From NCBI GenBank assembly GCA_050259235.1, contig JBLNAG010000002.1, positions 24,382-88,381 of the forward strand: DNA of 64,000 nucleotides, read 5' to 3'. The DNA comes from Ignavibacteriales bacterium. GTDB lineage: Bacteria > Bacillota_I > Bacilli_A > RF39 > UBA660. The notes under the pieces are model-generated. The model saw only the letters and a list, made by a program, of their open reading frames with translations. It made no database searches and had not been told where the DNA came from. Made by a program: the position numbers and the translations under genes. This document shows, piece by piece, positions 12,689-51,711 of the stretch; within the stretch, counting starts at the first letter, position 1, and each line of letters begins with the position of its first letter.

Positions 12689-14188
12689 TTATTTTTTTAA
12701 TTTATACTTTATTTTGAACACAAATATCGTTATTAATACAATTATTAAATATATAAATAATAATGTTTTATTAAGTACTGTACTCTTTTTAATAACAAAT
12801 GAAGGACTTAAAGATTCTTTATTCTTATTTAATTCTTTATTTTTAAGTTGTAATGTTAATATATCATTATTAAACTTATTAATTAAATCATCTTTACCTT
12901 TTAATATTTCTTTTATATTTATATATTGATTATTAATAATTGTATTTAAATTATTAATTTGTTTTTTTAAACTTTGATTTTCATTTATTTTATAATTTAA
13001 AGCATCAATTAAATTTTGTTTTATATCAACCATAACATCTTTCGTGATTGTCTTATAAGGAAGAATATAATTAACTTTATATGTACCATTTATATCTTTA
13101 TCTAAATTACTAGTTATCTTTATATCATTTACCGTTGACTCTAAAATAAAATCTTTTAAATTAATATCTTTATTATCTATTATTAAATCTTTTTTTATAA
13201 CAACTTTATCACGTGTCTGGGATCTGTATAAAGTAATAGTTTCACCTTTATATGGATAATCATCATTTCCTATTTCACTATATCCATCCATATAATGATT
13301 AATTAGATTATAATGACGATATAAAATATCCTTATATTTATATCCTTTAATAGGATTTATAACACGAGTTGGAAATAACTCAGGAATAGTATTAGAAATC
13401 CCAGATTCACTATATTCTGGATTCTTAATTACTAAGTCTTGATATGTATAATTAAATGGTTCGATATCAGAAGTTGAACCATTTTTAAATATGTAACTAA
13501 ACAGTTCTTCAGCATAAATTAAATCATTATTTTCTTTTTCCCTACTAACACTTATCTTAAATCTCTTAACACTTTCTTGTTCATCGTATAAGTACATTAC
13601 AACTTTAAAATCATTCAAATTATAGTAATCTTTTAAATCAACAATTAACTCATTTCCATTTTTTATTCTTGATTGATTTTCACGAGTAATTCCATTATTT
13701 ATATATTTATCAAAACTACTATTACATTCTGTACATAAATAATCATAATTTATCTTTTGATTATTAATATAGATATTTAATTCTGGTATATTGAAGTATC
13801 CATTACTTCCTTCAACATCTTTAATATGGATATATCTAATTTTTAGCATATCTTTATATTCATATATATCTTTTTTAATAATAAGACGATTAGGAATAAT
13901 TTCCGGTTCTTGTATGAACCACTCACTCCAATCACTAAGAATGTAATCACCTTTATCAATAAAAGGATAATTCACATCATTGCTTCCCTCAACATAATAA
14001 TCTCCCATACTTTTTTCGGTATTATACCAACTATATAATACTTTCTTTTCTACTTTAACTAAATCAGATTCCAACACTTCTGTTTGACTATAGTCTGAGA
14101 AAGAAGAATATGGAGAATAATAAATATCACTAGCCAAGACTCTACTATTTAAACTAAATAGTAACAATATAAAAATTATTTTTTTCAT
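12689..14188 (-). CDS. hypothetical secreted protein with a C-terminal coiled coil and TM anchor
   Basis: 499 aa with an N-terminal signal peptide, an Asn/Tyr/Lys-rich body, a C-terminal heptad-like segment and a terminal hydrophobic anchor with a KYKLKK tail. Confidence 0.5.
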   Translation of the reverse strand: MKKIIFILLLFSLNSRVLASDIYYSPYSSFSDYSQTEVLESDLVKVEKKVLYSWYNTEKSMGDYYVEGSNDVNYPFIDKGDYILSDWSEWFIQEPEIIPNRLIIKKDIYEYKDMLKIRYIHIKDVEGSNGYFNIPELNIYINNQKINYDYLCTECNSSFDKYINNGITRENQSRIKNGNELIVDLKDYYNLNDFKVVMYLYDEQESVKRFKISVSREKENNDLIYAEELFSYIFKNGSTSDIEPFNYTYQDLVIKNPEYSESGISNTIPELFPTRVINPIKGYKYKDILYRHYNLINHYMDGYSEIGNDDYPYKGETITLYRSQTRDKVVIKKDLIIDNKDINLKDFILESTVNDIKITSNLDKDINGTYKVNYILPYKTITKDVMVDIKQNLIDALNYKINENQSLKKQINNLNTIINNQYINIKEILKGKDDLINKFNNDILTLQLKNKELNKNKESLSPSFVIKKSTVLNKTLLFIYLIIVLITIFVFKIKYKLKK

Positions 14189-23847: not shown

Positions 23848-24690
23848 TTATTCTTCTATTAATTCCAATAAATTAACTATTTTTAAATCTTTAGACTTAA
23901 TATATTTGATAATTAATTCTAATTCCCTTTCAACTGCATTATTTACATTTAATGCAATAATACTTCCAGAATCCAATTTATCTTTTATTTCAATAAATGG
24001 ATAATTATTAACAATAATATTAGGACTAATAGTATAGTTTTTATTTGATGCACATATATCTAGATCTTTAGTATCACCGGTTTTATAACAAAAGCTATTT
24101 TTCTGTTTACCTATCTTTTTAATGATTGTATCCATCCATATAAAAGTACTATTTTGATAATTAAGATTATCACTTAAATTACCAATATTATGTTTTTTTT
24201 CAATTAATTTTATAACCATATTGTTATTACTTGAAAACCAGTCACTATTGACAAAAAAGTTACCCTTTATTCCATTGCTGTTAAGTATTTGTAATATAGT
24301 ATTAATATTATCTGTTCCATCAACTAAGAAAACCAAACTAACCATCTTTTTAGTTTTATTACCACTAATGATATATTTATCTTTATTATCCTTCAAACTA
24401 ATACTAGGTTTAACTTTTTGATATTCCAACAAATTAGCATTGTACTTGCCAAGACGACGCATTCTTTGATAACTTTTATCAATGTTAATTTCTTTTCCAG
24501 ATATACCAGGTATAATAGTATTCCCATTAATATATGCATTAATTGCTTCTACTTTATAAGAATTTTGTTCTTCTTTTATTTGAATCATAATATTATCTAA
24601 TTCCTTAACAACACTCACAGTTTTTTCAGTATAAAAAAAACTAAAACTAACTAGACATAATATTCCTAGGTATTGGAAAAACTTCTTCAT
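23848..24690 (-). CDS. secreted polysaccharide-deacetylase-like (NodB-homology) protein, probably catalytically degenerate
   Basis: Signal peptide present. A FLVDGTDN segment aligns to the TFDDG motif, but the His-His motif is absent (HNIGNLS instead of HxxxHP). Confidence 0.5.
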   Translation of the reverse strand: MKKFFQYLGILCLVSFSFFYTEKTVSVVKELDNIMIQIKEEQNSYKVEAINAYINGNTIIPGISGKEINIDKSYQRMRRLGKYNANLLEYQKVKPSISLKDNKDKYIISGNKTKKMVSLVFLVDGTDNINTILQILNSNGIKGNFFVNSDWFSSNNNMVIKLIEKKHNIGNLSDNLNYQNSTFIWMDTIIKKIGKQKNSFCYKTGDTKDLDICASNKNYTISPNIIVNNYPFIEIKDKLDSGSIIALNVNNAVERELELIIKYIKSKDLKIVNLLELIEE

Positions 24691-25071: not shown

Positions 25072-26625
25072 TTATTTAGCTTCTTCTTGTGCTCTTGTTT
25101 CTCTAATAACAATAACCTTAATTGTACCAGGATATTGCATTTCATTTTCAATACGATTTTTAATATCACGAGCTATCTTGTAACTTCCTAAGTCATCCAC
25201 CTTATCAGGTTTAACAATAACACGTAATTCACGTCCTGCTTGAACAGCAAAGGTATTAGCTACCCCTTCCATGCTATTAGCAATAGCTTCTAATTCTTCT
25301 AATCTCTTAATGTAATTTTCTAAAGAATCATTACGAGCTCCTGGACGAGAAGCAGATAAAGCATCTGCTATTGATACTAATACTGAAATAATACTTGTTG
25401 CTTCAACATCACCATGATGTGATTCAATAGAATTAATAACAGTATCATTTTCTTTATATTTTTTAGCTAATTCAACGCCTAAAGTAACATGGCTACCTTC
25501 TACTTCATGATCAATTGCTTTACCAATATCATGTAATAAACCTGCTCTCTTAGCTAATCCAACATTTTCGCCAATTTCAGCGGCCATAATACCTGCTAAA
25601 TGAGCAACTTCGATAGAATGTTGTAAAGCATTTTGTCCATAACTAGTTCTAAAATGTAATTTACCAATTAAAGCAACTAATTCAGGATCAACTTTAGTAA
25701 TACCCAATTCAAATAAAGCACCTTCACCATATTCAATAACTTTACTTTGAATTTCCTTTGTTGTCTTATCATATACTTCTTCAATACGTGCCGGATGGAT
25801 ACGTCCATCTTTTACTAAAGTATCAATTGTAGTATGAGCTATTTGTCTTCTAAATGGATCAAAACTTGAAATAACTATAGTTTCAGGTGTGTCATCAATA
25901 ATTAAATCAACACCCGTTACAGCTTCAATAGTACGAATATTTCTTCCTTCACGGCCAATAATTCTACCCTTCATATCATCATTAGGTAAAGTAACTACTG
26001 ATACTGTTTGTTCACTAACAACATCGCCAGCATATTTTTGCATAGACGAAACTAACATAGATTTAGCTTTTTTGTCAGCTTCTAATTTTGCTTCATCTTC
26101 ACGATCTTTGATGTATGCTGCTATTTCTAAATTCATCATTTCTTCTACTTTTTTTAGAACTAAATCTCTAGCTTCTATCTTAGAATAACCAGCGATTTTT
26201 TCTAATAATTCAATTTGTTCTTTCTTAATTTCTTCCGCTCTTTCTTGTTCTTTTTGAATTTCTTTTTGTTTTTCAATTATATTATTTTCTTTTTCTTCTA
26301 GCATTTCTTCGCGATTTTGAAGAGTCTGATCGCGACGATTGATATTTCCCTCACGAATAAGTAATCGTTCCTCAGCATCCTTCACTTCTTGCTTTTTCTC
26401 TTTTACTTCTTTTTCCGTTTCAATTTTAACTTTGTGAGCCTCTTCTTTGGCTTCTAATAAATAATCTCTCTTTATTTTATCGGCTTCTTTTCTTGCTTTT
26501 TCGAGCATTAATTCAGCCTTTTTTGACATTAATGTACCTTTAATATAATTTAAAACTAGTATTAATATAACCCCAATAAAAATTCCAAGTAAAACAAGTA
26601 AACCGGAGAACATAATATCATCCAT
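25072..26625 (-). CDS. rny: ribonuclease Y
   Basis: N-terminal TM helix, coiled coil, KH domain and HD domain ([10 protein letters not shown]...LLHDIGKA). Confidence 0.95.
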
Positions 26626-26727: not shown

Positions 26728-26750
26728 AGTGATATTATCAAAATATCACT
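26728..26750 (-). terminator. recA terminator hairpin overlapping the stop codon
   Basis: agtgatat tatcaaa atatcact followed by a U-run on the minus-strand transcript. Confidence 0.45.
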
Positions 26751-27786
26751 CTTCTATAACTTTATCTTCATTAGCAACTTTTAGTTCTTTTTTAGGATTA
26801 GATTTGAAGTATTCCCTAACTTTCTTTTCTAATTCATCTCTTAACTTAGTATTATTTTTTAATAATTCCTTTACATTTTCTTTCCCTTGACCAATTTTTT
26901 CTCCCTTATAAGCATACCATGCGCCACTTTTTTCAAGGATATTTGTTTCTGTGGCAATATCAACTATTTCACCTTCACGAGATATCCCTTCACCATACAT
27001 AATGTCAACAGCACAATTCTTAAAAGGTGGGGCCATCTTATTCTTAACAACTTTAATAGTCGTTTTATTACCAACTATTTCAGCCCCTAATTTAATTTGT
27101 TCAGATCTTCTTATATCCAAACGAATAGAAGAATAAAATTTTAAAGCTCTTCCCCCAGGAGTAACTTCGGGATTTCCAAACATAACTCCTACTTTTTCAC
27201 GTAATTGATTAATGAATATTGCAATAGTATTAGTTTTGCTAATAATACCAGATAGTTTTCTTAAAGCTTGACTCATCAAACGTGCTTGTAAGCCAACATG
27301 AGAGTCACCCATTTCACCTTCAATTTCTGCTTGAGGAACTAATGCAGCAACAGAGTCAATAACAACAATTCCTACTGCACCACTTCTAACCAAAGCTTCA
27401 CATATTTCTAGAGCTTGTTCACCATTATCAGGTTGTGATAATAGTAATTCATTTATATCTACGCCTAATTTAGAAGCATATTGTGGATCTAATGAATGTT
27501 CAGCATCAATAAAAGCAGCTCTACCACCTTTTTTTTGAACTTCAGCAATAGCATGCAAAGCTACCGTTGTCTTCCCACTAGATTCAGGACCATATATTTC
27601 TATAATTCTTCCTTTAGGATATCCACCTATTCCTAAAGCTACATCCAAACTTATTGATCCACTAGATACAACATCTATTTCTCTTGCTTTATTATCACCC
27701 AGTTTCATAACTGAGCCTTTACCAAATTGTTTTTCTATATCAAGTAAAACTTGTTCTAATTTTTTATCAGTAGTTGTACTACTCAT
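26746..27786 (-). CDS. recA: recombinase RecA
   Basis: Walker [11 protein letters not shown]1/L2 loops and full-length homology. Confidence 0.97.
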
Positions 27787-27964: not shown

Positions 27965-27984
27965 AATAGATATTTTTATCTATT
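27965..27984 (-). terminator. pgsA terminator hairpin
   Basis: aatagata tttt tatctatt followed by a U-run on the minus strand. Confidence 0.4.
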
Positions 27985-28573
27985 TTTCAAAAATTATTTT
28001 TTTATTCATTTGATAATATTGAGTACCAGATATTATTGAAAGAATTGTTGCAATTATCAACAATAATTCCGCTACTTTAAGATTCCATAATTCAAAAGGT
28101 AAATTATAGAATAACGTTAATACTATCCCCACCATTAAACAAGCTGTTTTAAGTTTTCCACTTTTTATAGCAGCTACTACCTTACCTTTATTACCAGCTA
28201 CCATCTTAATTGAGTTAACTACAGTATCCCTTAAAATTATTACTACTGGTATAATTGGATGGATAACACCTTGAGCAGCTAAAATAATTAAAACAGAATT
28301 AACTAACATTTTATCTGCAATAGCATCCATCATCTTACCAAAGTCAGTTACTAAATTATACTTACGGGCAATATACCCATCAAGGAAATCAGTAAGTGAT
28401 GCAATAATAAATAAAACTCCTGCAATTAAATAAGTAATATCTACAACAATCTTTTCATTAACAAATAATTGTGGTAATTCGATTCCTGTAGCATCAAATG
28501 GGAAAATTAATACAGCAATAATTATCAAAGATAATATAACTCTTAACATTGTTAACTTGTTTGGTAAATTCAT
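27980..28573 (-). CDS. pgsA: CDP-diacylglycerol--glycerol-3-phosphate 3-phosphatidyltransferase
   Basis: CDP-alcohol phosphatidyltransferase motif DFLDGYIARK...DAIADK. Confidence 0.9.
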   Translation of the reverse strand: MNLPNKLTMLRVILSLIIIAVLIFPFDATGIELPQLFVNEKIVVDITYLIAGVLFIIASLTDFLDGYIARKYNLVTDFGKMMDAIADKMLVNSVLIILAAQGVIHPIIPVVIILRDTVVNSIKMVAGNKGKVVAAIKSGKLKTACLMVGIVLTLFYNLPFELWNLKVAELLLIIATILSIISGTQYYQMNKKIIFEK

Positions 28574-28582
28574 TTTTTCCTC

Positions 28583-29062
28583 CTACATATTGTTTGTTGA
28601 ATAACTTTGTTCAATAAATTCATCGCTACTAACCAATTGAATTACAAAATATCCAATAACGATTAGAAGTAATATAATAATAATATATATAATGACTGGT
28701 GTTAATGTTGGTCTTTTTCTTTTAGACAGAGTATAAGGTGAAGCAATTTTTTTAACTGGTTCATCTTTTTTGTCCTTATTCTTTTTCTTAGCCTTCTTAA
28801 TTTCCTCTAATGAAATTTTTGAAGTATAGTCAAACAAATATTCATTAAATTCATCAACCATTTCTTCATGATTAAGACCTAAATATTTAGCATAATCTCT
28901 TATGAAGTACTTTAGATAAAAAATATCTTTAAAAGATTCGATATTTCCTTCTTCAATACTTTCGATTTGAGAAGGTCTCATCTTTAAATCTTCAGCAACT
29001 TCTTCAACAGTTATACCAATACTCTCTCTGGCTAACTTAAGTTTTTCTCCAATTTCTTTCAT
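28583..29062 (-). CDS. rodZ: RodZ/YmfM-like HTH membrane protein
   Basis: XRE-type HTH (IGEKLKLARESIGITVEEVAEDL), a basic linker and a single TM segment; it occupies the ymfM position upstream of pgsA. Confidence 0.65.
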   Translation of the reverse strand: MKEIGEKLKLARESIGITVEEVAEDLKMRPSQIESIEEGNIESFKDIFYLKYFIRDYAKYLGLNHEEMVDEFNEYLFDYTSKISLEEIKKAKKKNKDKKDEPVKKIASPYTLSKRKRPTLTPVIIYIIIILLLIVIGYFVIQLVSSDEFIEQSYSTNNM

Positions 29063-29071
29063 TTAACACCA

Positions 29072-29438
29072 CCTTAAATAACAATATTTTATAAGCCATG
29101 TTCTGTTTCTATTACTAGACGACAAACATTTATCTATCGATTACTCGATCCCATTGAAAGTTTGATTCCTTTCAACGAGTTCCCCTACCAATTTTGGGTT
29201 TCTCGCTCGAGGGGTTTACCCGTTCCACTTTTCTTATTTCTAAGAAAAATCGTCACTATGGCACTTTATGCCTAATATAACCATATCAAAGACTTAGGTT
29301 AATTCGGCGCCGTTAGTATTTCTACTACCTGAGGTTATTTTTTCCCTCAGCACGAACACTACTATCATCACAGATAGTGCGAGCATGGACTTTCCTCTAC
29401 ATTATAAAAATGCAGCGTTTGTCAAAATATCATTCTTT
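29072..29438 (-). ncRNA. rnpB: RNase P RNA (rnpB), Bacillus/type-B architecture
   Basis: The minus strand carries the universally conserved GUAGAGGAAAGUCCAUGCUCGCAC, AGUGCCAUAGUGACGA and GGUAAACCCCUCGAGCGAGAAACCCAAAUUGGUAGGGGAAC elements. The P1 stem is AAUGAUAUUUU paired with AAAAUAUUGUU. Ends are approximate (+/-10 nt). Confidence 0.85.
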
Positions 29439-29753
29439 ACCATATATTATTTTTTCTAAATTAGATAATCTTCTTAAAAGATCTGAATTGGTAATTTCAG
29501 CACCAGTTCCTTCTTTTAAGACATCAATTTGTGTTTTCATCTTGCGAATTTCTTGTTTAAGTTGCATATTGTCTTGAACTATTTCATTTTTTTCAATTTC
29601 TAATTCTTTGATTATTTTCATAAATTCTCCATAATCACGAATTACAATATCTAAAAACTTGTCAACTTCTTGTGGACGATACCCCCTAGTATCAATTTTA
29701 AATTCTTTGTCTAAAATGTCTTGACCTGTTAATAAAATTCTTTCTTGATACAA
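29430..29753 (-). CDS. gpsB: DivIVA-domain cell-division protein, GpsB-like
   Basis: 107 aa with a DivIVA N-terminal domain (ILDKEFKIDTRGYRPQEVDKFLD) and a C-terminal coiled coil. rnpB lies immediately downstream, the same synteny as in Bacillus. Confidence 0.8.
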   Translation of the reverse strand: MYQERILLTGQDILDKEFKIDTRGYRPQEVDKFLDIVIRDYGEFMKIIKELEIEKNEIVQDNMQLKQEIRKMKTQIDVLKEGTGAEITNSDLLRRLSNLEKIIYGKE

Positions 29754-29842
29754 GTTTACACCTCCAATTACCGATATAATTATCTCAAAAAATAATCAAA
29801 ATGTCAATTAAATACATTTGTATAAAAGGTTTCGTTATTTTA

Positions 29843-31765
29843 TTACTTTAGTTCCGTTTTACAGAAAAAGCAAGTACTATTCTTTTCATCGTTTACAGTT
29901 TTACAATTAGGACAAATTTTACTATGATTTCCCTTTTCTACAGTCGGCTCAGCAAGTAAAAAGTCTTCAAATATATTTGTATCAACTATTTTTGATGATT
30001 GATCAAATACTTCAGCTTGTTCATCAGCAATTTCCTCAAAGAATTTACCCTTATAATCTTCTTTCGGTTCTTCTTTTATAATTTCTTTTATAACAGAACT
30101 TTCTGCTTTTACTTCTTCTACCTTTGTTTCATTTATAGTATTACTTTCCTTTTTTTCTTTTCGTGCCTCACGTTTATAACTGTCATTACCTTTTTTCTTA
30201 CTCATACCAGACCAAAATAATGAAGTTATAATGACTGCACCTAGAACCGCTAAAATAGAAAATAATGGGATTTCATTTTTTTTAATATTAATAACACTTT
30301 CTTTAATATTACCATCGCGGCTTACAGCAATAATATAAATTTTACTACCATCTTGTAAATTGTCATTACCTAAAACTTTAATTAGAGTTCCTGGATCTTC
30401 AGCAGTAATGTTAATATCTAACTTATTTTCACTACCTATTTTTAAATCATATTCTAATTTTTCACTGTTAAATGGAACCTTATAACCTTTAACCTCAATA
30501 TTATTTAAAGTTGTAGATGGTAATTTTTCACCTTCATTTAATCTAATAACGGTAACTGTATAAGTTTTAACTGTTTCATTTTCTGCTGTTACTTTAACAG
30601 TCACAGTGTTATTCCCAACAATTAAATCTTTACCACCAACTATTTCAACCTTTGACTTACTGTTATTAGCTTCGGCTGTTAATTTTACTTCAGTGACATC
30701 ATATTCTACTGAAACATTATAAGCAATAATTTCAGGATCAAAATCTATTTTTCCTTTATCAATTTCAAGTGTTTTTAATGTGTTATCATCATTTCTAGCA
30801 TCACTTCTTTTAATGTTTAAGGTATATATTTTTACTGTTTGATTTTCGGCTATTACTTTTACTTCAACAACATTATTACCATAATTTAAATTAACTGTTC
30901 GTGGGCCAAAACCGGCTACAAAACTAGCTTTAACATCCGCTACTGCAGCACTAATGTTAGTAGTTGTTGAATCAACAGTTACACTATATGTAGTTGTACC
31001 AGCATTGAAAGCAATTGTTCCTCCACTAATACCAAGTGATGCTAAGTTATTATTACCACTTCTATTATCAGTTCTATTTACTTGAACAGAATAAACCTTA
31101 ACACTACCACTTTGTGATGTAACTTTTAACTGTACAATATTGGTACCATAATTTAGATTAACTGTTCTTGGACCAAAACCAGCTACAAAGCTAGCCGTTG
31201 CATCTGCTAAAGTTCCACTAATTTTTAAAGTACTTTTATTCATATTACCTAGATTATATGTCCCTGTTCCAGCATTAAATCCACTAACTGCGACATCATC
31301 TACTGCTAATGAAGCTAAGTTATTATTAGTAGAATATATACTAATGTTTTTAGCAATTATAGGTAAATTTGCCCCATTGGCTCCTGAATCAGATGCATAC
31401 ACATTATTTAGTGTAATAGTGGCAATTCCAGTTGCTGAAGCAGCTACTCTTACTGTTATTGTTGTTATTGATTGAGTTCCAGTAAATCCAGTATCTCTAT
31501 ATGCTAATAGTTGTGACTGATTGGATGTTCCATTCCATCCAGCTACATTAGCAATACCTACAAACTCTAAATTACCACTATATTGAATAGATGCTTCTAA
31601 ACCAGCCATAAGTTCTGGATTAGAAGTTCCTTTTACAGTACATGTTATTGTCTGCCCAGGTGAAGCTCCAGCAGGACAATCCATACTAGCACTCATACTA
31701 GCAAATACATTAGTTGGTAAAAGAAAATAAAGTAATAAGACAACTATAAAATATATTTTCTTCAT
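29843..31765 (-). CDS. membrane-anchored surface protein: signal peptide, cohesin-like N-terminal domain, three cadherin-like/Big repeats, TM helix, and a cytoplasmic tail ending in a CxxC...CxxC zinc ribbon
   Basis: The N-terminal ~130 aa resemble a type-I cohesin (PGQTITCTVKG...LEFVGIANVAGW...ITTITVRVAAS). Repeats LASLAVDDVAVSGF.../LASLGISGG.../LKTLEIDKG... follow, with a TM segment at about residue 515 and a C-terminal CPNCKTV...CFFCKTELK. Domain repeats also show at DNA level (about 30885-30950 versus 31140-31205). Confidence 0.55.
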   Translation of the reverse strand: MKKIYFIVVLLLYFLLPTNVFASMSASMDCPAGASPGQTITCTVKGTSNPELMAGLEASIQYSGNLEFVGIANVAGWNGTSNQSQLLAYRDTGFTGTQSITTITVRVAASATGIATITLNNVYASDSGANGANLPIIAKNISIYSTNNNLASLAVDDVAVSGFNAGTGTYNLGNMNKSTLKISGTLADATASFVAGFGPRTVNLNYGTNIVQLKVTSQSGSVKVYSVQVNRTDNRSGNNNLASLGISGGTIAFNAGTTTYSVTVDSTTTNISAAVADVKASFVAGFGPRTVNLNYGNNVVEVKVIAENQTVKIYTLNIKRSDARNDDNTLKTLEIDKGKIDFDPEIIAYNVSVEYDVTEVKLTAEANNSKSKVEIVGGKDLIVGNNTVTVKVTAENETVKTYTVTVIRLNEGEKLPSTTLNNIEVKGYKVPFNSEKLEYDLKIGSENKLDINITAEDPGTLIKVLGNDNLQDGSKIYIIAVSRDGNIKESVINIKKNEIPLFSILAVLGAVIITSLFWSGMSKKKGNDSYKREARKEKKESNTINETKVEEVKAESSVIKEIIKEEPKEDYKGKFFEEIADEQAEVFDQSSKIVDTNIFEDFLLAEPTVEKGNHSKICPNCKTVNDEKNSTCFFCKTELK

Positions 31766-31768
31766 TTT

Positions 31769-34700
31769 TTACTTCCCTTCTATCAGTGGATTAATTAAAG
31801 GATTAATTATATAATTATTGATTTTAACAATATCATTAACTCTCAAATTATTATCACCTGTTACATCAGCCGCTAATATTTCACTGCTATTACTAATAGG
31901 GCTATAACCAATGATGTGATTATTTATTTTTATTATATCATTAACACGAACATATCCGTCACCAGTAACGTCCCCCTTAACAACAATATTAAATCTAATA
32001 GTTTTATCTAAATTAGTTGTTTCTAAAATCATATTAGTTCCAATAATTCCCGTAGTACATTCAGTTGTACCATCACTTTGATATATCTTAATAGATGTTT
32101 CTGGTTCTACAATACTTATTTGTCCAACAAAGGCTTCAAATGAAGTTTCGTTTGATACTTCACTAATATAGCTACTATGAATTGAATATTGATTGGAAGT
32201 AATTGGGCTATCAACAATAACATCAATATTCTTAACGATTTTGCCATCATTAGCAGTAATAGTAATAGTAGCATTACCTGCACCTATAGCAGTTACTACT
32301 CCATTATCAACTGTTGCTACATCTTCATTACTTGATTGCCATACAGCTGTTTTATTTAATACGGTATCAGGATCAAATGCAATATCTATAGTTATTTCTT
32401 CGCCGATATCTAAAGATAAAGGACTAGTATCCACTATAATATCATTTAATAGTGGTAATGATTTCAAATATGGATGTTCACTAACTTTTATTCCCCAGTC
32501 ATTTGTAAAGTTAAATCCTACAAATGTTGCTTGGCTTTTTAATTCACTAAGAGTCTTTTGAACAGTATTAGTGATAGTTGCATACCCACTTTCCCCAGAA
32601 GCAGGTATAGAATCAGAAACATCATAATTGTTAGTTACACTCAAACCAACACTTGATGAACCAAATATTCCACCGATATAAATGACTCCACCTTGAACAT
32701 TACCAATATTATAAGTTTTACTTATTAAAGAGGTATTATATTCACTAGCATTTCCAAATCCAACTATTCCTCCAATATAGGAAGAAGTACTACCTAAAAT
32801 ATTCCCAGTATTATAAGCATTAATTAAATCAAAGTTTTCTCCATAACCAATTATTCCCCCAAGCATATAGGTAGTTCCAGAAATATTCCCAGTATTAAAT
32901 ACTTGTTCAATGCTTGATGCAATTATTCCCCCAAACATTCCTCCAACTTCTTCAATACCACTTATATTTCCATTATTATAACTACTAACTATATTGATTT
33001 CATTAGCGAGTCCAGTAATTCCACCAGTATATAATCCTGAACCAGTTATATTTGCAGTATTGAAAGTTCTTGTTATTCCTGAGTCGATAATAGAACCCGT
33101 AATACCACCAGTTGAATTTCTACCTATAACACTACCGCCAACATTGAAAATATCACTCAACTCTGATAATTGAGCAAATCCTGCTAAACTACCAACATTA
33201 TCTCTACCAGTTATGTTGCTATTTAATAAAGTAATATTTTTAATAGAAGAAGTATATATAATACCAAATAAACCTTGATAATCACTGGCAGCGTCATTTA
33301 TTTTTACACCTTTAATAACACGCCCATTACCATTAAAAGTTCCCACAAAAGGATTAGTACTATTACCAATTGGAATCCAATCCCAAGCTGATATATCAAT
33401 ATCATTAACAAGCTTATATGAACCAGTTAAGTTATTTCTTATACTGTTTAATTGTGATGCATTATCAATTAAAGTTATCCTATTTACAGTTACATTTATT
33501 GTATCAGATAATGTTCCATCTGTTTTGGAAACGGTTATAACTGCTGAACCTTCTTGTAAACCAGTAATTATTCCATTATTAATAGAAACAATACTAGGAT
33601 TACTACTTACCCAATTTAAAGTCGTAATATCGTCTGTTTTTTCAATAAAAGAATTTAAATCTCTTGTTTCGTTTAACCCAACATAAGCACTATTTAATTT
33701 AGAATACATACTTGTTACTTTAGTACCAAGAGAATCTGTCACTATAAAGTAATCTGTGTCAACATTATTGTTATATTTTGTTTCTACAGTATAATATCCT
33801 TTTTCAATACCTGTAGGAACAGTTATGCTAGCATTAGCTTGATTCATAATTATAGGATTTTTTACTATATTAAAACGATTAGTAACATCGCTACCCACCA
33901 TATTTTTAACAGTATAAGTTAAATATGCACCACTAGCAATATTACTAGTAATTGTATTAACTCCAATTACATAATTTACATTTGCATCATCAACAACAAT
34001 ATTAGAATTTCTAAGATCAGTGTCAATTTGTGTGCCACTTAAAGGGGTAATATCTTCTGTATAAGCTTTTATATCAACACTTATATCAAGACCACCATAA
34101 TAAGTATCTACCCAATTACTACCATCAAAAGAAGCATAACTTTGTGATGGCATTATTCCAACTAGTTCTTTAGATAATTGATCATGACCATTTTCTCTAG
34201 CCGGAACAAGATAATAACCACCATTAATGAAATGCACTATAACTGCATATTCTTTACCTTTAAGTTGAACAGGATTATTTAAAGTAACTGTATGATATCC
34301 TGGATATTCAATTGGAGTTGTTGAAGTTTGAACAAGTTTTACATTACTTCCAGTTAAACTTCCATCAACAGCATTTACATATATTTCGTAACTAGTATTT
34401 GCTTGATTAACACCAAAACTAACTTCAGTTAATGATTCTGTTTTTAAATCTTCTTTATTAAATACTACTGCTCCATAATTACCACTTACTTGATTCATTA
34501 AACCAGTCGGATTATATTGATAAGCATTATCATAGTCAGCAGTAGAAGCAGATATTATGCCTGCCATATATGCCCCAATCATATAGTCTTCATATGAATA
34601 ATAATAATATCCATTATTTCCAAAACTTGTTCCCCATGAATTTTGAACAATCCAAGCTCCATTACTTGTTGGTCGTTGTCCAGAAATTCGTCCACTATTA

Positions 34701-35620
34701 AAATTAGCTCTAGAATAATTATCATCCCAACCTATAATTACCATAGCATGAGGGGAATTATAATAATCAGTATAGTTATCAGTATAAACAGAATCATAGG
34801 TATTATTGAAATATGTTCCACTTGGCGCAGCTGCATGAAAATAAACTCCACCATTATCCATAACTTGTTTTTTAATAATATTATTGTATTCTTGTCTTTC
34901 TAAAGCAGTAGCATTATAGTTATTAAATGATGGTAAATAATAAGTATTATCAATTTGAATATTACTAGTAGCTACAAAAGTATTGGTAAGAGATACTGGT
35001 AAAGTACCATTACCACTAAAGCTACTAACTGGTCCAAAACTACTTGTCCAATAACTACTTGTATAACTAAAATTACCACCATTATTTAATTCCATTATCC
35101 CATAAGGATTATTACTTCCACCTTGAAAATCATAAGCCAATATATAATTTGCATGAATAGGATTAAAGTTATAATTTCCTTGCCCATTCAATTTTAAATT
35201 TGATTCTAAAGCACTGGATGCAGAATATGCCCAACATAATCCTAATGATCCTTGGTTTTTAATAGGTGTTGTATAATTAACTCCACCAACATTTCTTAAA
35301 TCATATTGAGCTGGTATAACACCATCTTCTACAATTGATCTAGTTTTACCAAATAATGATGTTTTATATAAAGACACAAAAGGCTGATCACTAGTTTTAG
35401 GAGCTGGTGTTTTTTCTTTTTCATCATCTGGTAAAGATAACCACTTTAGATATTCATCACTATAAGGAGCTAATTCTAATTTTGAATTAGAGGCTTCATA
35501 CGTAATATTATCTATTGAGTAAGATTTATCTGGAAAATAAAAAATACTTAAAACAGTAAGAAAACTTACAGTTAAAAGCATTATTAAATTTCTAAACTTA
35601 TTACCCATAACATTACCCAC
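31769..35620 (-). CDS. secreted multidomain papain-like (C1A) cysteine peptidase with two Big_2 domains, GLUG-motif repeats and a C-terminal type-I dockerin
   Basis: Signal peptide. C1 catalytic motifs NQGSLGLCWAYSA (Cys), SPHAMVIIGWDDN (His) and NSWGTSFGNNGYYY (Asn/Trp). Big_2 segments near residues 660 and 1080, repeated GG[IM]xG GLUG-like segments in between, and a C-terminal GDVTGDGYVRVNDIIKINNHII ... ADVTGDNNLRVNDIVKINNYII duplicated dockerin calcium-binding repeat. Confidence 0.8.
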   Translation of the reverse strand: MGNVMGNKFRNLIMLLTVSFLTVLSIFYFPDKSYSIDNITYEASNSKLELAPYSDEYLKWLSLPDDEKEKTPAPKTSDQPFVSLYKTSLFGKTRSIVEDGVIPAQYDLRNVGGVNYTTPIKNQGSLGLCWAYSASSALESNLKLNGQGNYNFNPIHANYILAYDFQGGSNNPYGIMELNNGGNFSYTSSYWTSSFGPVSSFSGNGTLPVSLTNTFVATSNIQIDNTYYLPSFNNYNATALERQEYNNIIKKQVMDNGGVYFHAAAPSGTYFNNTYDSVYTDNYTDYYNSPHAMVIIGWDDNYSRANFNSGRISGQRPTSNGAWIVQNSWGTSFGNNGYYYYSYEDYMIGAYMAGIISASTADYDNAYQYNPTGLMNQVSGNYGAVVFNKEDLKTESLTEVSFGVNQANTSYEIYVNAVDGSLTGSNVKLVQTSTTPIEYPGYHTVTLNNPVQLKGKEYAVIVHFINGGYYLVPARENGHDQLSKELVGIMPSQSYASFDGSNWVDTYYGGLDISVDIKAYTEDITPLSGTQIDTDLRNSNIVVDDANVNYVIGVNTITSNIASGAYLTYTVKNMVGSDVTNRFNIVKNPIIMNQANASITVPTGIEKGYYTVETKYNNNVDTDYFIVTDSLGTKVTSMYSKLNSAYVGLNETRDLNSFIEKTDDITTLNWVSSNPSIVSINNGIITGLQEGSAVITVSKTDGTLSDTINVTVNRITLIDNASQLNSIRNNLTGSYKLVNDIDISAWDWIPIGNSTNPFVGTFNGNGRVIKGVKINDAASDYQGLFGIIYTSSIKNITLLNSNITGRDNVGSLAGFAQLSELSDIFNVGGSVIGRNSTGGITGSIIDSGITRTFNTANITGSGLYTGGITGLANEINIVSSYNNGNISGIEEVGGMFGGIIASSIEQVFNTGNISGTTYMLGGIIGYGENFDLINAYNTGNILGSTSSYIGGIVGFGNASEYNTSLISKTYNIGNVQGGVIYIGGIFGSSSVGLSVTNNYDVSDSIPASGESGYATITNTVQKTLSELKSQATFVGFNFTNDWGIKVSEHPYLKSLPLLNDIIVDTSPLSLDIGEEITIDIAFDPDTVLNKTAVWQSSNEDVATVDNGVVTAIGAGNATITITANDGKIVKNIDVIVDSPITSNQYSIHSSYISEVSNETSFEAFVGQISIVEPETSIKIYQSDGTTECTTGIIGTNMILETTNLDKTIRFNIVVKGDVTGDGYVRVNDIIKINNHIIGYSPISNSSEILAADVTGDNNLRVNDIVKINNYIINPLINPLIEGK

Positions 35621-35682: not shown

Positions 35683-35710
35683 ATAAAAAAAAGTAGATAT
35701 CTACTTTTTT
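35683..35710. terminator. palindromic terminator between the protease gene start and the upstream 290-aa gene
   Basis: aaaaaagtagatatctacttttttt is a perfect palindrome flanked by A/T runs. Confidence 0.5.
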
Positions 35711-35714
35711 TACA

Positions 35715-36587
35715 TTAAGACTTATCACTATTATCTATTCTTTTTAAAAGTTGTAAAACCTTATAATCATTGGGTCTAACTCGTTCAAGTTCTCCTTGAA
35801 ATAAAGCACTCTTTCCTTCTATAGTAACTTCTAATTCTTTAACAAAATCTCTAATATACCTAATACCATTTAATAAATTTGAATCATGAGGCGCACCATT
35901 ACTATGTGTTTCCAAATCATCTAGCTCACTAAGTATATGACCAATATACATTCTTTCATGACTTTCATATTGTCTAAAATATGTTCTAAAGTATTGATCT
36001 CTATCATTTACATACATATCAAAATCTTTATTTTCATACTCAAATCCTACCATTGGCATACTTTTAACATCTTGAATCATACCACTATAAGTGGGAAATA
36101 AAGTTGGCATTCTTGAACCTTCATTTCTTAAAACAAAACTATTCTTACTGTAATTTTTAGGACTACGGCTAAAAGTCAATATATATGCTTTATCATTTTT
36201 AGTAATACCAAAAGTAGTACAATTATCTAAATCATCATCATCTGATGGTAAAGATAATTCCATTCCGCCGCCCGTTGCTCTATATAATGGAAACTTATCA
36301 ATAATTGCATCTTCTATTGGATTCAGTAATGATCCACCAAGTTCTTTTACTTCGCTTAATTGAAGTAAATATAATTCATCTAATAACTCACATAATCTTG
36401 GATCTTCTTTTCTAGGTACTCCTACTATTCTAGTAGCTTCAAATCCTCCTTGATTTTCCTTATCATGTGCTTCAGCGTCAAAAGTAATCATTACATTTTG
36501 AGTATTATCAGTTTGAAAAAACACTCTTGTTTTACTTATATAATCAAATATTACAAATCCATTCTCTAATTTTCCTAATTTTATCAT
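35715..36587 (-). CDS. hypothetical cytoplasmic protein (no recognisable domain)
   Basis: 290-aa ORF with a good codon pattern and no signal peptide or TM helix; acidic DDDD stretch mid-protein. Confidence 0.45.
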   Translation of the reverse strand: MIKLGKLENGFVIFDYISKTRVFFQTDNTQNVMITFDAEAHDKENQGGFEATRIVGVPRKEDPRLCELLDELYLLQLSEVKELGGSLLNPIEDAIIDKFPLYRATGGGMELSLPSDDDDLDNCTTFGITKNDKAYILTFSRSPKNYSKNSFVLRNEGSRMPTLFPTYSGMIQDVKSMPMVGFEYENKDFDMYVNDRDQYFRTYFRQYESHERMYIGHILSELDDLETHSNGAPHDSNLLNGIRYIRDFVKELEVTIEGKSALFQGELERVRPNDYKVLQLLKRIDNSDKS

Positions 36588-39469: not shown

Positions 39470-40711
39470 CTAATATAATTTACCATATCTCTTTTGCTTA
39501 CATTTTTCATATTTGTTAGTATCATGTTCAATATATCTTTCTACTATAGGAGAACTAGTATCTAGTTCTTTTACAATCCCTTCTTCTCTACTTACAATAA
39601 TTGGGGGGATAACACAAACATCCCAGCCACGTACTATGTATTCATATAGATCTTCAAAGGGTGTTAATGAACTAGTTGTAATAGTCTTCTTAACAACCGA
39701 TTCAATTTTAGAAAAACCAGAACATCTTACTAAGATATCGCTTATTTGATTATTAGTCATAGCTTTCAATTTGTATAATTCTCGTTTTGGATTCAAAGTA
39801 TATTTTTGCATATCCTCAAAAAAATGATAAAAGCCCGCATTAGCACTTACAGCACCCAAAATAGTTTTAACAAGTTTTAGATTATAAGTTCTAGCATCTA
39901 AGAAACTATGGTTATCTGTTGTTTGAATAGAAGAAAAATCATAAATATAATTTAAATAATTCATGAAGTCACCTTTACTAATATAGCCATTATTAATAAT
40001 TTCCAATCGTTTTTTTAATAATGCATCTTTATTTCCTTCTATTGATTTACCCTCTAAAAATAATCTTTTTACTCTTTCATAAGGATAAATTAAATTAGTT
40101 TCTTTATGCCCATTTCTACCTCCCGTATTATATAAATCTCCATATGAAGTTATATACCATGCATTAGGAAGATTAATGTTTCTCGCAACTATAGTTGGTT
40201 CTTCATATTCAATGGTAGAATGGATTTTTATATCCTTTAAAGCACTATCAAAAAGAAGAGATATTTTTAGCCACTTATCTTCTATTTCAGGACATAAATA
40301 CATCACTAAAGACAAAGCCCTACTATAGAATAATAATTGAGGAATAATGTCAGTTGGAACTTCTAGTATTGCTTTTAATCTTGGAATATCCTCTTTCATT
40401 TCTTCTAACTCATTCAAAGTCATATAATCAGCTTGATACAAATTATAGTCTATTTCAGACGATTCGTTAGAATTCCATTTTATTCTTAACTTTTCAGATA
40501 TTTTATCAATATTAATACTTCTTATAAGTAAATCAATATCTTGAATAGTTCTTAATAAATGACTATACTTACCAAAAAAATCTGATGGTAAATCATTTTT
40601 CTTCACTTTCTTATATCCAATTGGTCCATCTTTTCTTTCAATAAGAGAAAGACAAAAATTATTTGGATTTTCTAATTCTTTATAATACTTAATCATATTC
40701 TCACCTAACAT
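39470..40711 (-). CDS. hypothetical cytoplasmic protein (413 aa, no recognisable domain)
   Basis: Long ORF with coherent codon usage in a coat/cell-wall neighbourhood. Confidence 0.45.
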   Translation of the reverse strand: MLGENMIKYYKELENPNNFCLSLIERKDGPIGYKKVKKNDLPSDFFGKYSHLLRTIQDIDLLIRSINIDKISEKLRIKWNSNESSEIDYNLYQADYMTLNELEEMKEDIPRLKAILEVPTDIIPQLLFYSRALSLVMYLCPEIEDKWLKISLLFDSALKDIKIHSTIEYEEPTIVARNINLPNAWYITSYGDLYNTGGRNGHKETNLIYPYERVKRLFLEGKSIEGNKDALLKKRLEIINNGYISKGDFMNYLNYIYDFSSIQTTDNHSFLDARTYNLKLVKTILGAVSANAGFYHFFEDMQKYTLNPKRELYKLKAMTNNQISDILVRCSGFSKIESVVKKTITTSSLTPFEDLYEYIVRGWDVCVIPPIIVSREEGIVKELDTSSPIVERYIEHDTNKYEKCKQKRYGKLY

Positions 40712-48724: not shown

Positions 48725-51556
48725 TTATTCTATTGGGTACCTATATATAGGATATTTTTGAGAAATTTCTATATTAACACTTTCAAATATTTTAATAATC
48801 AAGTGTTCCTTTAGGTATTCATCAATATCGATGTTATCTTTTAACAAAAATTGAGGAGGATTATCTTTTAATTCTTTAACCATCTTTGTATTATTTGAAA
48901 CATCAATTAAAGAAATTTGGCGTGTTCCTTCAGAATTTAAATCGTCATATAAATCTTCTTGAAGTCTATTTTTATAGATTCCCTCAATAGATTTTTTACT
49001 TAGAATAATCGCACAATTATCTTCGAAATAAAAGCCTTCTATAACAGGAATTTTGACTTTATCTTTTTTATAATAATAAACATATCTTTCTTCCTTATCA
49101 TAATATTTTATTTTATTCGAAATATAATAATAAGGAACCAATATAACGATGTCAGATTTGTCTGGAAATGTTTTAATTATTTCATCAAGGGAATCCTCTG
49201 TTATTTCTATACTTTTTTTGTACAATTCAGTTAAGAAAAATTCATTTTCTGCTTCAATTATAGCATTAGCATATTCTTTACCAATAAATTTCACAGAATT
49301 ACCTGGCTCTTCAATAAAATAATCTTTATTTATGAATTGATTAAATCCTTTTGATTCTTTTATGCTGTTTTCGTTAATTATCCATTTCTTTCCATCAAAA
49401 AGAAAATTTGAAATTTTATCATTTCTGTTATCTAATAAATAGTTAATTTCTTCCCTAAATTTATCAATGACATCATTCGAAAGAGATGTATTTAAAATTT
49501 CATTTTTCTTTTCTTCAATGCATTTCTCCAATTTCAAATTTAAGTAATTGATTAAATCATTTTTATATGTGTCTTTTTTATCTGGTGGATATTTTAAAAT
49601 AGATTCTGCAAAATAATCATATTTCTTCAACTTATCAATGAAATTCTTAAATAAATATTCATTTTTTTTATTTACTATATTTAATAACTCTAATTTATTT
49701 TGCTCTATTCTAATACCATTATAATACGCAATTAAAGTTAAGGAACTTATTTCATCAAACTGTATTGTAATTAGGCCTTGATGCTTATTTTCAGGTTCAT
49801 TGAATTCCAAAAAGTGCCACGAAGATATAAGTTCATTATATTTTCCCTCTTTATTTAACTCCAAATTCAATTCTAATATGTCAGCCACATTATACCCTAA
49901 AAACCAATTATGAATCGTTTTTACTATAACTTTTCTGATGTTTTCTGCATTTTCTGATTTTGCTTTATTAAACTTATATATCAGCCAAGAAATAGCCCCG
50001 ATTTTAACTATATTTTCCGGAATAAGATATTCCATCGATTTTATATAAGCTTTCTTATTATTTAATATGAATGATTCTTTATAATCCTCATCCCCATCAT
50101 ACAATTCAGAATCTTTGATTCTATTAGTCGCAAAAAGACTTCCATTCACAGAATATATTCTACTTGAGTTTTGAGGGAATACACTCGTTATAACAGAATA
50201 TTTTTCCTTTCCAATTGCATCAAATATAATTTGCTGTTTTAAATTTAAGAAGTAATATGAAACATTTATTTCATCAAATTTTCCTGCTGTTATTTTTTCA
50301 TAGAAAGACAAATCATTACTAAGTTTTTCGAACTCTAAATCTGTTTTTAAATCACTAAGTCGCAAATAGAAATACATACTATAGTATTTTTTAAATTCAT
50401 TAAAATTATTTTTATTTTTGGCTTCTGATGATAATAACAACGAAAACTCTATTATTTGTTTTTCAAATTTCTTGTAATTAAACCTAATATTCCTCATTTG
50501 ACGGAAAATTTTATCTAAAAAATCATTATCATTTGTTTCAATAAAAGCTTTAAAGAACTGAATTATTTCCTTTTGATATTTATCTGCATCAAATGTATTA
50601 TTTTCTTTATAAGAATTTAATAGATCAGAAAAAATATTATTTATATCTCCTTCCACCATATTTCTATCATCAACGTTAACCGCTTTTATTCTTATTGAGT
50701 TTAAAATTTTATTTTCTTCAATTTTCAATTCTTTTTTAACTCTTAAAATAGATTCACCTTCTTTAATATAAGAACCTACAACTTTCTTTAATATAAATAA
50801 TTCTTTATTATTTTTTTGTTCTTTATTGGAAGCATCATTTATTTGAGAACTATTGGTGTCATATTCATTATTTTTATTTTTTTTAACTAATTTACCTAAA
50901 TATTTAAAATCGATATTATCAATATAACCAGTTTCTTTGCTGTATATATCCGTGTACTCGTCTTTATCTCCAAAAAAACCGTGCATTTCATCATAACTTA
51001 TAAAATCGTATTTTGCTAATTCTTTTTCAAAATTTGGATACTTACTTTTTATATCATTTATGTTTTTTTCAAAATTATCTTTTCGCTTTTCCAAAAATTT
51101 TTTGAATTTCCTATTACTTTTATCTTCAGATAAGAATATATTAATGAAATTTTTGAAATAACATAATAACATAATATTTATTGTTACTACAAGTGCTGTT
51201 ATTACATATTTTATTACTATGAAATCACAATAAAGGGAAACTATCATCAATAAAAATGTAATTAAAGAATACTTAATAAGTTTAACTATACCTGATTGTT
51301 CTACTAAGAATGGTAAATGCGTTTCTCTCTTTTTATTTTTATTTTCAAATATAAATATTGATAGTGATATTAAATATGCTGAGAATCCAACAAACACTGC
51401 TAATAGGTAACCATCATAACCATCACTCAAAATAGTTTTATCTATAAAATCTTTAAATGTATTTAATGCTTTCCATATATATGTAATTAAGCTTTGGATT
51501 GTTATCAGCAAAAAGTAAATAAAATCTTTTATAATTTCTAATTTTTCAAATTTCAT
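48725..51556 (-). CDS. large orphan membrane protein (4 N-terminal TM helices plus an ~800-aa cytoplasmic Lys/Asn/Glu-rich domain)
   Basis: 946-aa ORF. The likely start is the ATG at 51556, with the RBS ggggtgg 8 nt upstream. No recognisable catalytic motif and no P-loop. Confidence 0.55.
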   Translation of the reverse strand: MKFEKLEIIKDFIYFLLITIQSLITYIWKALNTFKDFIDKTILSDGYDGYLLAVFVGFSAYLISLSIFIFENKNKKRETHLPFLVEQSGIVKLIKYSLITFLLMIVSLYCDFIVIKYVITALVVTINIMLLCYFKNFINIFLSEDKSNRKFKKFLEKRKDNFEKNINDIKSKYPNFEKELAKYDFISYDEMHGFFGDKDEYTDIYSKETGYIDNIDFKYLGKLVKKNKNNEYDTNSSQINDASNKEQKNNKELFILKKVVGSYIKEGESILRVKKELKIEENKILNSIRIKAVNVDDRNMVEGDINNIFSDLLNSYKENNTFDADKYQKEIIQFFKAFIETNDNDFLDKIFRQMRNIRFNYKKFEKQIIEFSLLLSSEAKNKNNFNEFKKYYSMYFYLRLSDLKTDLEFEKLSNDLSFYEKITAGKFDEINVSYYFLNLKQQIIFDAIGKEKYSVITSVFPQNSSRIYSVNGSLFATNRIKDSELYDGDEDYKESFILNNKKAYIKSMEYLIPENIVKIGAISWLIYKFNKAKSENAENIRKVIVKTIHNWFLGYNVADILELNLELNKEGKYNELISSWHFLEFNEPENKHQGLITIQFDEISSLTLIAYYNGIRIEQNKLELLNIVNKKNEYLFKNFIDKLKKYDYFAESILKYPPDKKDTYKNDLINYLNLKLEKCIEEKKNEILNTSLSNDVIDKFREEINYLLDNRNDKISNFLFDGKKWIINENSIKESKGFNQFINKDYFIEEPGNSVKFIGKEYANAIIEAENEFFLTELYKKSIEITEDSLDEIIKTFPDKSDIVILVPYYYISNKIKYYDKEERYVYYYKKDKVKIPVIEGFYFEDNCAIILSKKSIEGIYKNRLQEDLYDDLNSEGTRQISLIDVSNNTKMVKELKDNPPQFLLKDNIDIDEYLKEHLIIKIFESVNIEISQKYPIYRYPIE

Positions 51557-51711
51557 ATTAACCACCCCAATAAAATAATAGTTACTAAATAAATTATATC
51601 ACAATTGTATAGTAAAAAGTAAAAAGAGACTAATTAAAGTCCCTTTTCAAATGTATTAAGATTGCAAAACCTCCTGTAAAATAAACAAAAAAATTCACAT
51701 AATTTTCATAA

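Follow-up and report, generated by a model that had tools for sequence, protein, structure and literature searches.

Cellulosomes are the best-known setting for the pairing of cohesin and dockerin modules. Examples from outside cellulosomes exist and, to our knowledge, few of them have a defined architecture or function. The anchors of cellulosomes and amylosomes attach by sortase (LPXTG motifs) or by surface-layer homology (SLH) domains and belong to multi-cohesin assemblies centred on carbohydrate-active enzymes (CAZymes). Here we describe a two-gene locus that encodes a dockerin-bearing cysteine protease and a cohesin-bearing membrane anchor, within a 64-kb stretch of DNA (the window: positions 24,382 to 88,381 of contig JBLNAG010000002.1, assembly GCA_050259235.1). 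An earlier interpretation of this DNA made from its letters only (the sequence-only reading) had proposed that the two proteins are a self-contained cohesin–dockerin pair which tethers the protease to the cell surface. The analysis indicates that the locus is probably a two-gene, non-cellulosomal cohesin–dockerin cassette for surface display, in which the dockerin of one product would bind the cohesin of the other.

A minimal pair of this kind is ClcC/ClcD of Cellulosilyticum lentocellum, an adjacent single-cohesin and single-dockerin pair whose products form a heterodimer in vitro (PMC13487519). As in ClcC/ClcD, the window holds two adjacent, probably co-transcribed genes that encode the only cohesin and the only dockerin seen, the dockerin being of canonical type and the cohesin divergent. 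The ClcC/ClcD cargo is a glycoside hydrolase family 5 (GH5) cellulase, whereas the cargo here is a cysteine protease; and the ClcC/ClcD scaffoldin is free and unanchored, with the order CBM3-X2-cohesin and a C-terminal cohesin, whereas the window cohesin is N-terminal on a stalk of cadherin-like repeats anchored by a transmembrane helix, without a carbohydrate-binding module (CBM) or glycoside hydrolase. Dockerin-bearing peptidases and leucine-rich repeat (LRR) proteins belong to the dockerin repertoire of Ruminococcus flavefaciens (PMC2930009), and a peptidase C10–dockerin protein has been described from a rumen metagenome (PMC6487960).

Capture of dockerin-bearing secreted proteins by a surface cohesin is also the principle of R. 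flavefaciens ScaE, of Clostridium thermocellum SdbA and OlpB, and of the Ruminococcus bromii amylosome. The window anchor differs from such anchoring scaffoldins in having a C-terminal transmembrane helix with a cytoplasmic tail and a single cohesin; the cargo is not a CAZyme, and the host lineage is one of uncultured Bacilli, not a clostridial one. The hallmarks of cellulosomes and amylosomes are absent: the two proteins have one cohesin between them, and Pfam searches found no CBM and no glycoside hydrolase in either. In function the cassette resembles the way in which a cellulosome is anchored, without being a cellulosome itself.

Precedents thus exist for cohesins and dockerins outside cellulosomes, for peptidases and LRR proteins that bear dockerins, and for a minimal adjacent pair that binds. 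In the literature searched, we found no description of a single N-terminal cohesin on a membrane-anchored cadherin-repeat stalk, of a Cwp84-like protease as the usual dockerin cargo, of a cargo-swappable two-gene cassette recurring in uncultured Bacilli, or of a clade-specific cytoplasmic zinc-ribbon tail on such an anchor. The cassette is a conceptual extension of known cohesin–dockerin display.

The dockerin of the protease and the cohesin of the anchor

Both open reading frames (ORFs) lie on the minus strand, where the sequence-only reading had placed them. The cargo gene (31769..35620; ORF and Pfam evidence) has a GTG start and encodes a predicted secreted, Cwp84-like cysteine protease of 1283 aa. 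The anchor gene (29843..31765) encodes a putative type I membrane protein of 640 aa, composed of a signal peptide, a cohesin, a cadherin-like stalk, a transmembrane helix and a cytoplasmic tail. A gap of 3 nt separates its ATG from the stop codon of the protease gene, with which it is in frame, and the last protease codons contain a Shine–Dalgarno-like stretch (GAAGGGAAG). The 3-nt gap and the position of this stretch suggest that the anchor is probably translationally coupled to the protease.

On the evidence of profiles and a modelled fold, the C-terminus of the protease is a dockerin (aa 1215–1273; 31802..31978, minus strand). Two 22-residue repeats, at aa 1216–1237 and 1251–1272, carry the putative Ca2+ loops DVTGDGYVRVND (aa 1217–1228) and DVTGDNNLRVND (aa 1252–1263), which were the sole matches in a dockerin-loop motif scan of all six frames of the window. 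The Dockerin_1 model (PF00404) scores 20.6 bits on the full protein (aa 1215–1271), below its cutoff of 22.9; when the C-terminal 109 aa are searched alone, the score rises to 25.1 bits, with model positions 1–56 of 57 aligned. Full-length homologues of the protease at 30–37% identity are mostly annotated with PF00404, and the same duplicated segment closes every one of them. A profile of 22 such C-termini matches about 35 dockerins in the Protein Data Bank (PDB), with a best E value of 6.5e-18; the matches include 1ohz/2ccl and C. thermocellum Xyn10B, CelD and CelS. Loop positions 1, 5 and 12 are the Ca2+ ligand positions of the dockerin F-hand, and in the alignment of these 22 C-termini Asp is invariant or at least 90% conserved at all three positions of both repeats.

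The AlphaFold2 (AF2) model of the last 146 aa is confident (predicted local distance difference test, pLDDT, 93.8; predicted template modelling score, pTM, 0.86), with helices at model positions 89–99, 108–114 and 124–144, in keeping with the dockerin fold of two Ca2+ loop–helix motifs and a linking helix. When the modelled dockerin was used in a Foldseek search of the PDB, the top seven matches were all dockerins (root-mean-square deviation 1.2–2.2 Å, TMt 0.73–0.88). The earlier assignment of the duplicated segment to the type I dockerin repeat was therefore borne out, in modelled fold as well as in sequence, and the dockerin is predicted to bind Ca2+.

Upstream of the dockerin lies a small alpha/beta domain resembling an X-module (aa 1138–1214; 31979..32209, minus strand), which is conserved in homologues. 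It was modelled together with the dockerin as one confident two-domain unit of 146 aa, and the profile matches to the X-Doc chains 4u3s_B, 4wi0_B, 5k39_B and 2b59_B reach into the region upstream of the dockerin. In type I dockerins, loop positions 10 and 11 are the pair that contacts the cohesin. Among lineages this pair differs (VN, MN, IA, PL, IF, IL, MA, LS, AT and others), and in nearly every protein it is the same in both repeats, as would be expected of functional dockerins with a dual binding mode. The window dockerin has V-N at positions 10–11 of both repeats, which makes a dual binding mode, in either of two orientations related by 180°, probable.

The N-terminal module of the anchor (aa 23–148, 126 aa; 31322..31699, minus strand) follows a signal peptide (aa 1–22, VFA/S) and is, by profile and modelled fold, a divergent cohesin. 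Simple searches were uninformative: PF00963 did not match the full-length anchor, a word-indexed homologue search with the module alone found nothing, and phmmer against the PDB returned antibody noise only. An exhaustive HMMER search recovered 59 representative relatives of the module, always directly after a signal peptide. With a 19-member profile of this family, R. flavefaciens ScaB cohesins were the first PDB matches (E 4e-6 to 2e-5) and an Archaeoglobus fulgidus cohesin was also found; five of the 19 members match PF00963 individually (best 2.7e-7).

Cohesins fold as a nine-stranded flattened beta-sandwich (jelly roll), and the AF2 model of the module is all-beta (pLDDT 95.2, pTM 0.88). 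In a Foldseek search, 24 of the top 25 PDB matches were cohesins (2xdh, 5n5p, 2vo8, 2jh2, 6kgc, 4uyp and others; TMq up to 0.80, the value of 2jh2), many of them solved in complex with dockerins. The best structural matches, with TMq values of 0.69–0.80, are cohesins of Clostridium perfringens glycoside hydrolases (2jh2, 2vo8, 2w1n) and of A. fulgidus (2xdh), which are likewise used outside cellulose degradation. They lie in large secreted enzymes or in a dockerin-bearing protein and do not, like the window cohesin, cap a dedicated membrane anchor; in sequence they are only 8–18% identical to it. One relative, P0096, has a stalk near-identical to that of another, P0074, and carries a canonical-looking cohesin at its N-terminus; the N-terminal position of the anchor is therefore a cohesin slot. 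Two cysteines in the first two strands, Cys30 and Cys42 (31634–31681), are invariant in all 18 members of the subfamily and absent from P0096; they may form a disulfide or a metal site that defines the subfamily.

The module also occurs in very short proteins of 114–230 aa (P0119, P0124, P0137, P0141, P0147 and others), which apparently consist of a signal peptide and a cohesin, with or without a transmembrane segment. Judged by this composition, they may be mini-anchors that lack a stalk. P0119 has the module twice with a transmembrane-like segment between the copies, and could represent two fused ORFs.

The protease itself begins with a hydrophobic signal segment (aa 11–30). Its papain-family C1A catalytic domain (aa 102–344; 34589..35317, minus strand) matches Peptidase_C1 (PF00112) with 53.5 bits against a cutoff of 20.7, and the papain-type catalytic residues Q123, C129, H291 and N327 (within NQGSLGLCW, PHAMVIIGWDD and QNSWG) are intact, as had been claimed. 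It is followed by a lectin-like domain of the Cwp84 type (PF18560, 77.9 bits, profile positions 2–156 of 156; aa 367–521; 34058..34522, minus strand). The closest solved structure is that of Clostridioides difficile Cwp84 (4ci7/4d59, E 2e-28), which aligns across both of these domains; in construct 4ci7 the residue that corresponds to C129 in the alignment was mutated to Ala. The two proteins share this core, and both would be surface-associated proteases. In Cwp84, CWB2 repeats provide attachment to the wall, and the enzyme's target is SlpA, the precursor of the S-layer. In contrast, the window protease has no match to CWB2 (PF04122) at E values up to 1, and adds Big_2 and GLUG-like regions and the dockerin end. 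By its domain matches it is Cwp84-like in its catalytic core only. By analogy with Cwp84, its substrates may be surface or extracellular proteins.

Two Big_2 domains had been proposed, and the Pfam match (41.7 bits) indeed falls in two stretches, one forming an Ig-like domain at aa 1063–1127 (32240..32434, minus strand) and the second located by eye at about aa 640–715. The proposed GLUG repeats fared less well. Glycine-rich V/IGGI.G repeats are visible by eye in a region with approximate boundaries (aa ~724–1045; 32486..33451, minus strand), but Pfam Glug (PF07581) has no match in the protease at E values up to 1, and Peptidase_M26_N is sub-threshold at aa 724–824 (22.5–25 bits against a cutoff of 27.7). 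PF07581 is annotated in some remote homologues of the protease.

Recurrence of the pair in related genomes

A scan of species-representative genomes with a six-sequence alignment yielded 41 loci, nearly all from metagenome-assembled genomes (MAGs) of uncultured Bacilli from human, ruminant, rabbit and deer guts. These were searched with custom hidden Markov models (HMMs), the cohesin HMM being built without P0096. About 13 of the 17 distinct cohesin-anchor loci have a same-strand dockerin ORF as the next gene upstream, overlapping the anchor gene or separated from it by no more than 13 nt, and at least two chromosomal settings are represented among the pairs. Three close relatives (L005, L006 and L007) keep the protease–anchor pair, with anchors 69–83% and dockerins 85–87% identical. 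In distant relatives, in which the protease is ~30% and the anchor ~37–40% identical, the pair recurs with overlapping or near-overlapping genes, in the context fpg-truB ... hisS-aspS instead of gpsB-rodZ-pgsA-recA.

The usual cargo is a C1 protease with a lectin-like domain. LRR proteins, two in tandem, take its place in L028 and L016, and a Flg_new/DUF11 protein does so in L022 and L023. The constant trait of the anchor's neighbour is the dockerin, not the enzyme.

The borderline Pfam scores of both modules in this genome might mark the dockerin-like and cohesin-like segments as decayed remnants without binding function, adjacent for historical reasons. This is highly improbable. Dockerins remain 85–87% identical across four orthologues whose anchors are 69–83% identical, all six Asp at Ca2+ ligand positions are conserved across the 22 homologues, both AF2 models are very confident, and the cassette persists between lineages that are no more than 30–40% identical.

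A search with the full-length anchor as query found 252 relatives of the anchor family; some members, P0120 among them, have a Big_2-like module at the N-terminus instead of a cohesin. L005, which is 70% identical, has a gene for a 298-aa LRR protein (740–1636) two genes upstream of the protease, in a place taken in the window by an unrelated ORF of 290 aa. In public records the anchor is named 'cadherin-like beta sandwich domain-containing protein', and the partner protease of a relative 'hypothetical protein'. The organism labels disagree with one another: the record of the identical anchor protein bears the name 'Ignavibacteriales bacterium', those of close relatives bear 'uncultured Muribaculaceae', and most relatives are labelled 'Bacilli bacterium', 'Tenericutes', 'Mollicutes', 'Erysipelotrichaceae' or 'Candidatus Coprovivens'. 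The odd labels are probably due to mis-binned or mislabelled MAGs. The GC content of 27%, the Bacillus-like synteny and the labels of most relatives point to an uncultured Bacilli lineage for the window.

Proposed display mechanism and its alternatives

In the proposed mechanism, both proteins would be exported, the protease by the Sec pathway. The anchor would be held by its C-terminal transmembrane helix, with four to five beta-sandwich domains carrying the distal cohesin across the wall; at the usual length of ~4 nm per Ig-like domain, the cohesin might reach roughly 15–20 nm outward. Outside the cell, the Ca2+-loaded dockerin of the protease would bind the anchor cohesin non-covalently, probably in either of its two orientations, and the protease would thereby be displayed without sortase, SLH or CWB2 anchoring. 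Independence of sortase and SLH had been part of the sequence-only reading; Pfam finds no SLH domain in the two proteins, and the LPXTG motif was not explicitly searched for. The differing cargo at the same anchor slot (mostly protease, also LRR and Flg_new/DUF11 proteins) suggests a modular unit of cargo and socket, in which one type of anchor would serve different dockerin-bearing proteins across related uncultured Bacilli.

Uncultured Bacilli of guts and digesters carry the cassette repeatedly, with exchangeable cargo that includes Cwp84-like proteases and LRR proteins among others. If the two modules bind as proposed, the cassette would represent a distinct route, independent of sortase and SLH, for the display of proteases and adhesin-like proteins in Gram-positive-type bacteria, and genes that lack annotation in abundant, uncultured Bacilli of the gut would gain a concrete function in surface biology. 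Protein engineering could then draw on a natural set of probably orthogonal pairs, given by the contact residues that differ between lineages (VN, MN, IA, PL and others).

Several observations weigh against the cassette as proposed, the first of which concern the modules themselves. The isolated cohesin module scores 21.0 bits with PF00963 (E 4e-4), below the cutoff of 24.1, so that the earlier cohesin assignment is upheld by fold and falls short by Pfam. A profile of the four closest orthologues returned antibody noise only from the PDB. When canonical-looking P0096 was left out of the 19-member profile, the same four cohesins came first (E 4e-4 to 9e-3) and were followed at 0.0097 by a DUF11/CLIPPER stalk domain. 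P0096 was also present in the alignment given to AF2, which might bias the module model slightly. In the dockerin, position 3 of the Ca2+ loop is Thr instead of the usual Asn or Asp, a minor deviation; many homologues have Asn.

The sub-threshold Pfam score is one reason to consider that the N-terminal Ig-like tip of the anchor binds an external ligand, that the protease matures the anchor, and that the dockerin binds something else. The succession of tip domain, repeat stalk and anchor matches that of fibrillar adhesins, the DUF11/CLIPPER stalk domain 9ifr is among both the sequence and the fold matches (bioRxiv 10.1101/2025.04.25.650565), and the protease core resembles Cwp84, which cleaves SlpA. 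Such an adhesin with its own processing protease is nevertheless unlikely, given that cohesins lead the fold matches by 24 to 1 and that the upstream neighbour is defined by its dockerin, with LRR and Flg_new/DUF11 cargo in the same slot, which an adhesin would not predict. Divergence of dockerin and cohesin is also correlated beyond that of the stalk. As for the module itself, its reading as a CLIPPER/DUF11 stalk domain was rejected, as no DUF11 Pfam match was found in the window module or in the 19 family members and cohesins dominate the fold matches.

That correlation is one of the survey results in favour of the pairing. Across 14 pairs, dockerin and cohesin identities are correlated (r 0.89; partial r given stalk 0.57; permutation p ~2e-4), but the co-divergence is suggestive only, as shared phylogeny is not fully removed by the mirror-tree statistic. 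Other findings of the survey weigh against the pairing. The closest outgroup anchors (P0005, P0006 and L012) retain a cohesin, and no dockerin gene adjoins them. In L009 (2601–4262), a C1 protease with divergent TPLD dockerin loops precedes an anchor whose N-terminal module is Big_2-like, not a cohesin.

The outgroup anchors bear on how exclusive the partnership is. Their cohesin is conserved, so its partners must be encoded elsewhere, and in L028 and L016 two dockerin genes lie upstream of one anchor with a single cohesin. The anchor cohesin could accordingly be a general socket for several dockerin proteins encoded in the genome, with the protease as one client; the window covers 64 kb of that genome. 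We regard such a hub as a realistic, though not the favoured, possibility. It would use the same mechanism as a dedicated pair without being exclusive. Motif scan and HMM searches found no other dockerin or cohesin within the window; a dedicated partner is also suggested by the contact residues specific to each lineage and by the close pairing, one dockerin gene to one anchor, at most loci. The description of the pair as self-contained thus holds for the window only, whereas relatives without an adjacent dockerin gene, or with two, depart from it.

Stalk, predicted cytoplasmic tail and neighbouring genes

Between the cohesin and the membrane, the anchor of the proposed cassette has a stalk (aa 149–498; 30272..31321, minus strand) of three cadherin-like beta-sandwich repeats and a further beta region. 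The three repeats recognized by the sequence-only reading are matched by PF12733 in three stretches (99.1 bits), and the repeat consensus is conserved in the alignment of relatives. A hydropathy scan identified a single transmembrane helix (aa 500–521; 30203..30268, minus strand), followed by KKK, and under the positive-inside rule the tail of ~119 aa is predicted to be cytoplasmic.

The tail contains a conserved K-x-K-F-F motif (aa 571–576; 30038–30055) and ends in a C4 zinc-ribbon-like motif, CPNC-x10-CFFC (CPNCKTVNDEKNSTCFFC; aa 618–635; 29861..29914, minus strand). Pfam zinc-ribbon models (DZR and Zn_ribbon_3) are not significant on the tail (E 0.43–0.49). Six orthologues (P0001–P0006, 45–83% identity) keep the C4 motif in a tail that otherwise diverges, and the outgroup anchors P0005, P0006 and L012 retain the zinc-ribbon tail where complete. 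The C4 tail and the K-x-K-F-F motif are confined to the clade of the window. All zinc-ribbon-bearing relatives place the anchor in the gpsB-rodZ-pgsA-recA slot, and in this clade the ribbon is accompanied by a GpsB-like gene downstream of the anchor; L014 has a GpsB-like gene downstream and no ribbon.

The anchor gene lies directly upstream of genes for a GpsB-like DivIVA-domain protein, a RodZ-like helix–turn–helix (HTH) protein, pgsA and recA, which raises the idea that the tail, through the K-x-K-F-F motif and the C4 ribbon, couples the displayed protease to the division or elongation machinery, or reports cargo occupancy across the membrane. With coupling, the anchor would be recruited to septa or poles and the protease would act at defined sites of wall or surface-layer remodelling. 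We give this little credence. A link between ribbon and GpsB as a general rule was rejected: the co-occurrence is limited to one clade, L014 has a GpsB-like gene and lacks the ribbon, and a promoter-like site lies between the two genes. Of the earlier remarks on the tail, the CPNC...CFFC motif proved real and conserved in six orthologues, but it belongs to one narrow clade and no link to an intracellular partner was found.

The promoter-like site (TTGACA-17-TG-GATAAT, 11/12; 29779..29807, minus strand) lies between the anchor stop codon and the GpsB-like gene. It is a consensus match only, and suggests that the GpsB-like gene may have its own promoter. At the other end of the cassette, an AT-rich hairpin with a T-run (AAAAAAAGTAGATATCTACTTTTTTTT; 35685..35711, minus strand) was read by eye directly 3' of the stop codon of the upstream 290-aa gene, and is the likely 5' boundary of the two-gene transcription unit, as judged from its sequence. 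The terminator scan requires at least three G-C pairs and therefore did not call this hairpin; it also gave no match between the protease and anchor genes, and none after the anchor. Promoter predictions are at background level (73 found against 62.7 expected). The operon boundaries therefore rest on gene spacing and the one hairpin.

Downstream of the anchor follow the genes for the GpsB-like protein (29430–29753; 107 aa, C-terminal LRRLSNLEKIIYG) and a RodZ-like HTH_25 membrane protein (28583–29062), then pgsA (27980–28573), recA (26746–27786) and an RNase Y-like gene (25072–26625). This order matches the Bacillus-type rodZ-pgsA-recA-rny core synteny. Of the 46 window ORFs that are 150 aa or longer, 43 lie on the minus strand, and the GC skew of the plus strand is negative in every 2-kb bin; the window lies within one replichore with strongly co-oriented genes. 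GC content is ~27% overall and 0.29–0.30 in the cassette area, as against 0.23–0.31 elsewhere, and composition around the cassette shows no sign of a foreign island.

Among the larger ORFs of the window, those at 48725–51565 (946 aa), 56266–59013 (915 aa), 12689–14188 (499 aa) and 39470–40711 (413 aa) have no Pfam match at E values up to 1e-5, and the 290-aa ORF just upstream of the protease (35715–36587) has none up to 1e-3; none of the five matches the cohesin, dockerin or C1 HMMs. In the P0005 relative (L002, 1436–10013), the 7 kb on the upstream side of the anchor include RNase R-smpB and a LysM/CAP gene. RNase R of the window, at 60795–62897, is about 25 kb further from the anchor, which implies that the window lineage has extra material, the protease gene included, between RNase R and the anchor.

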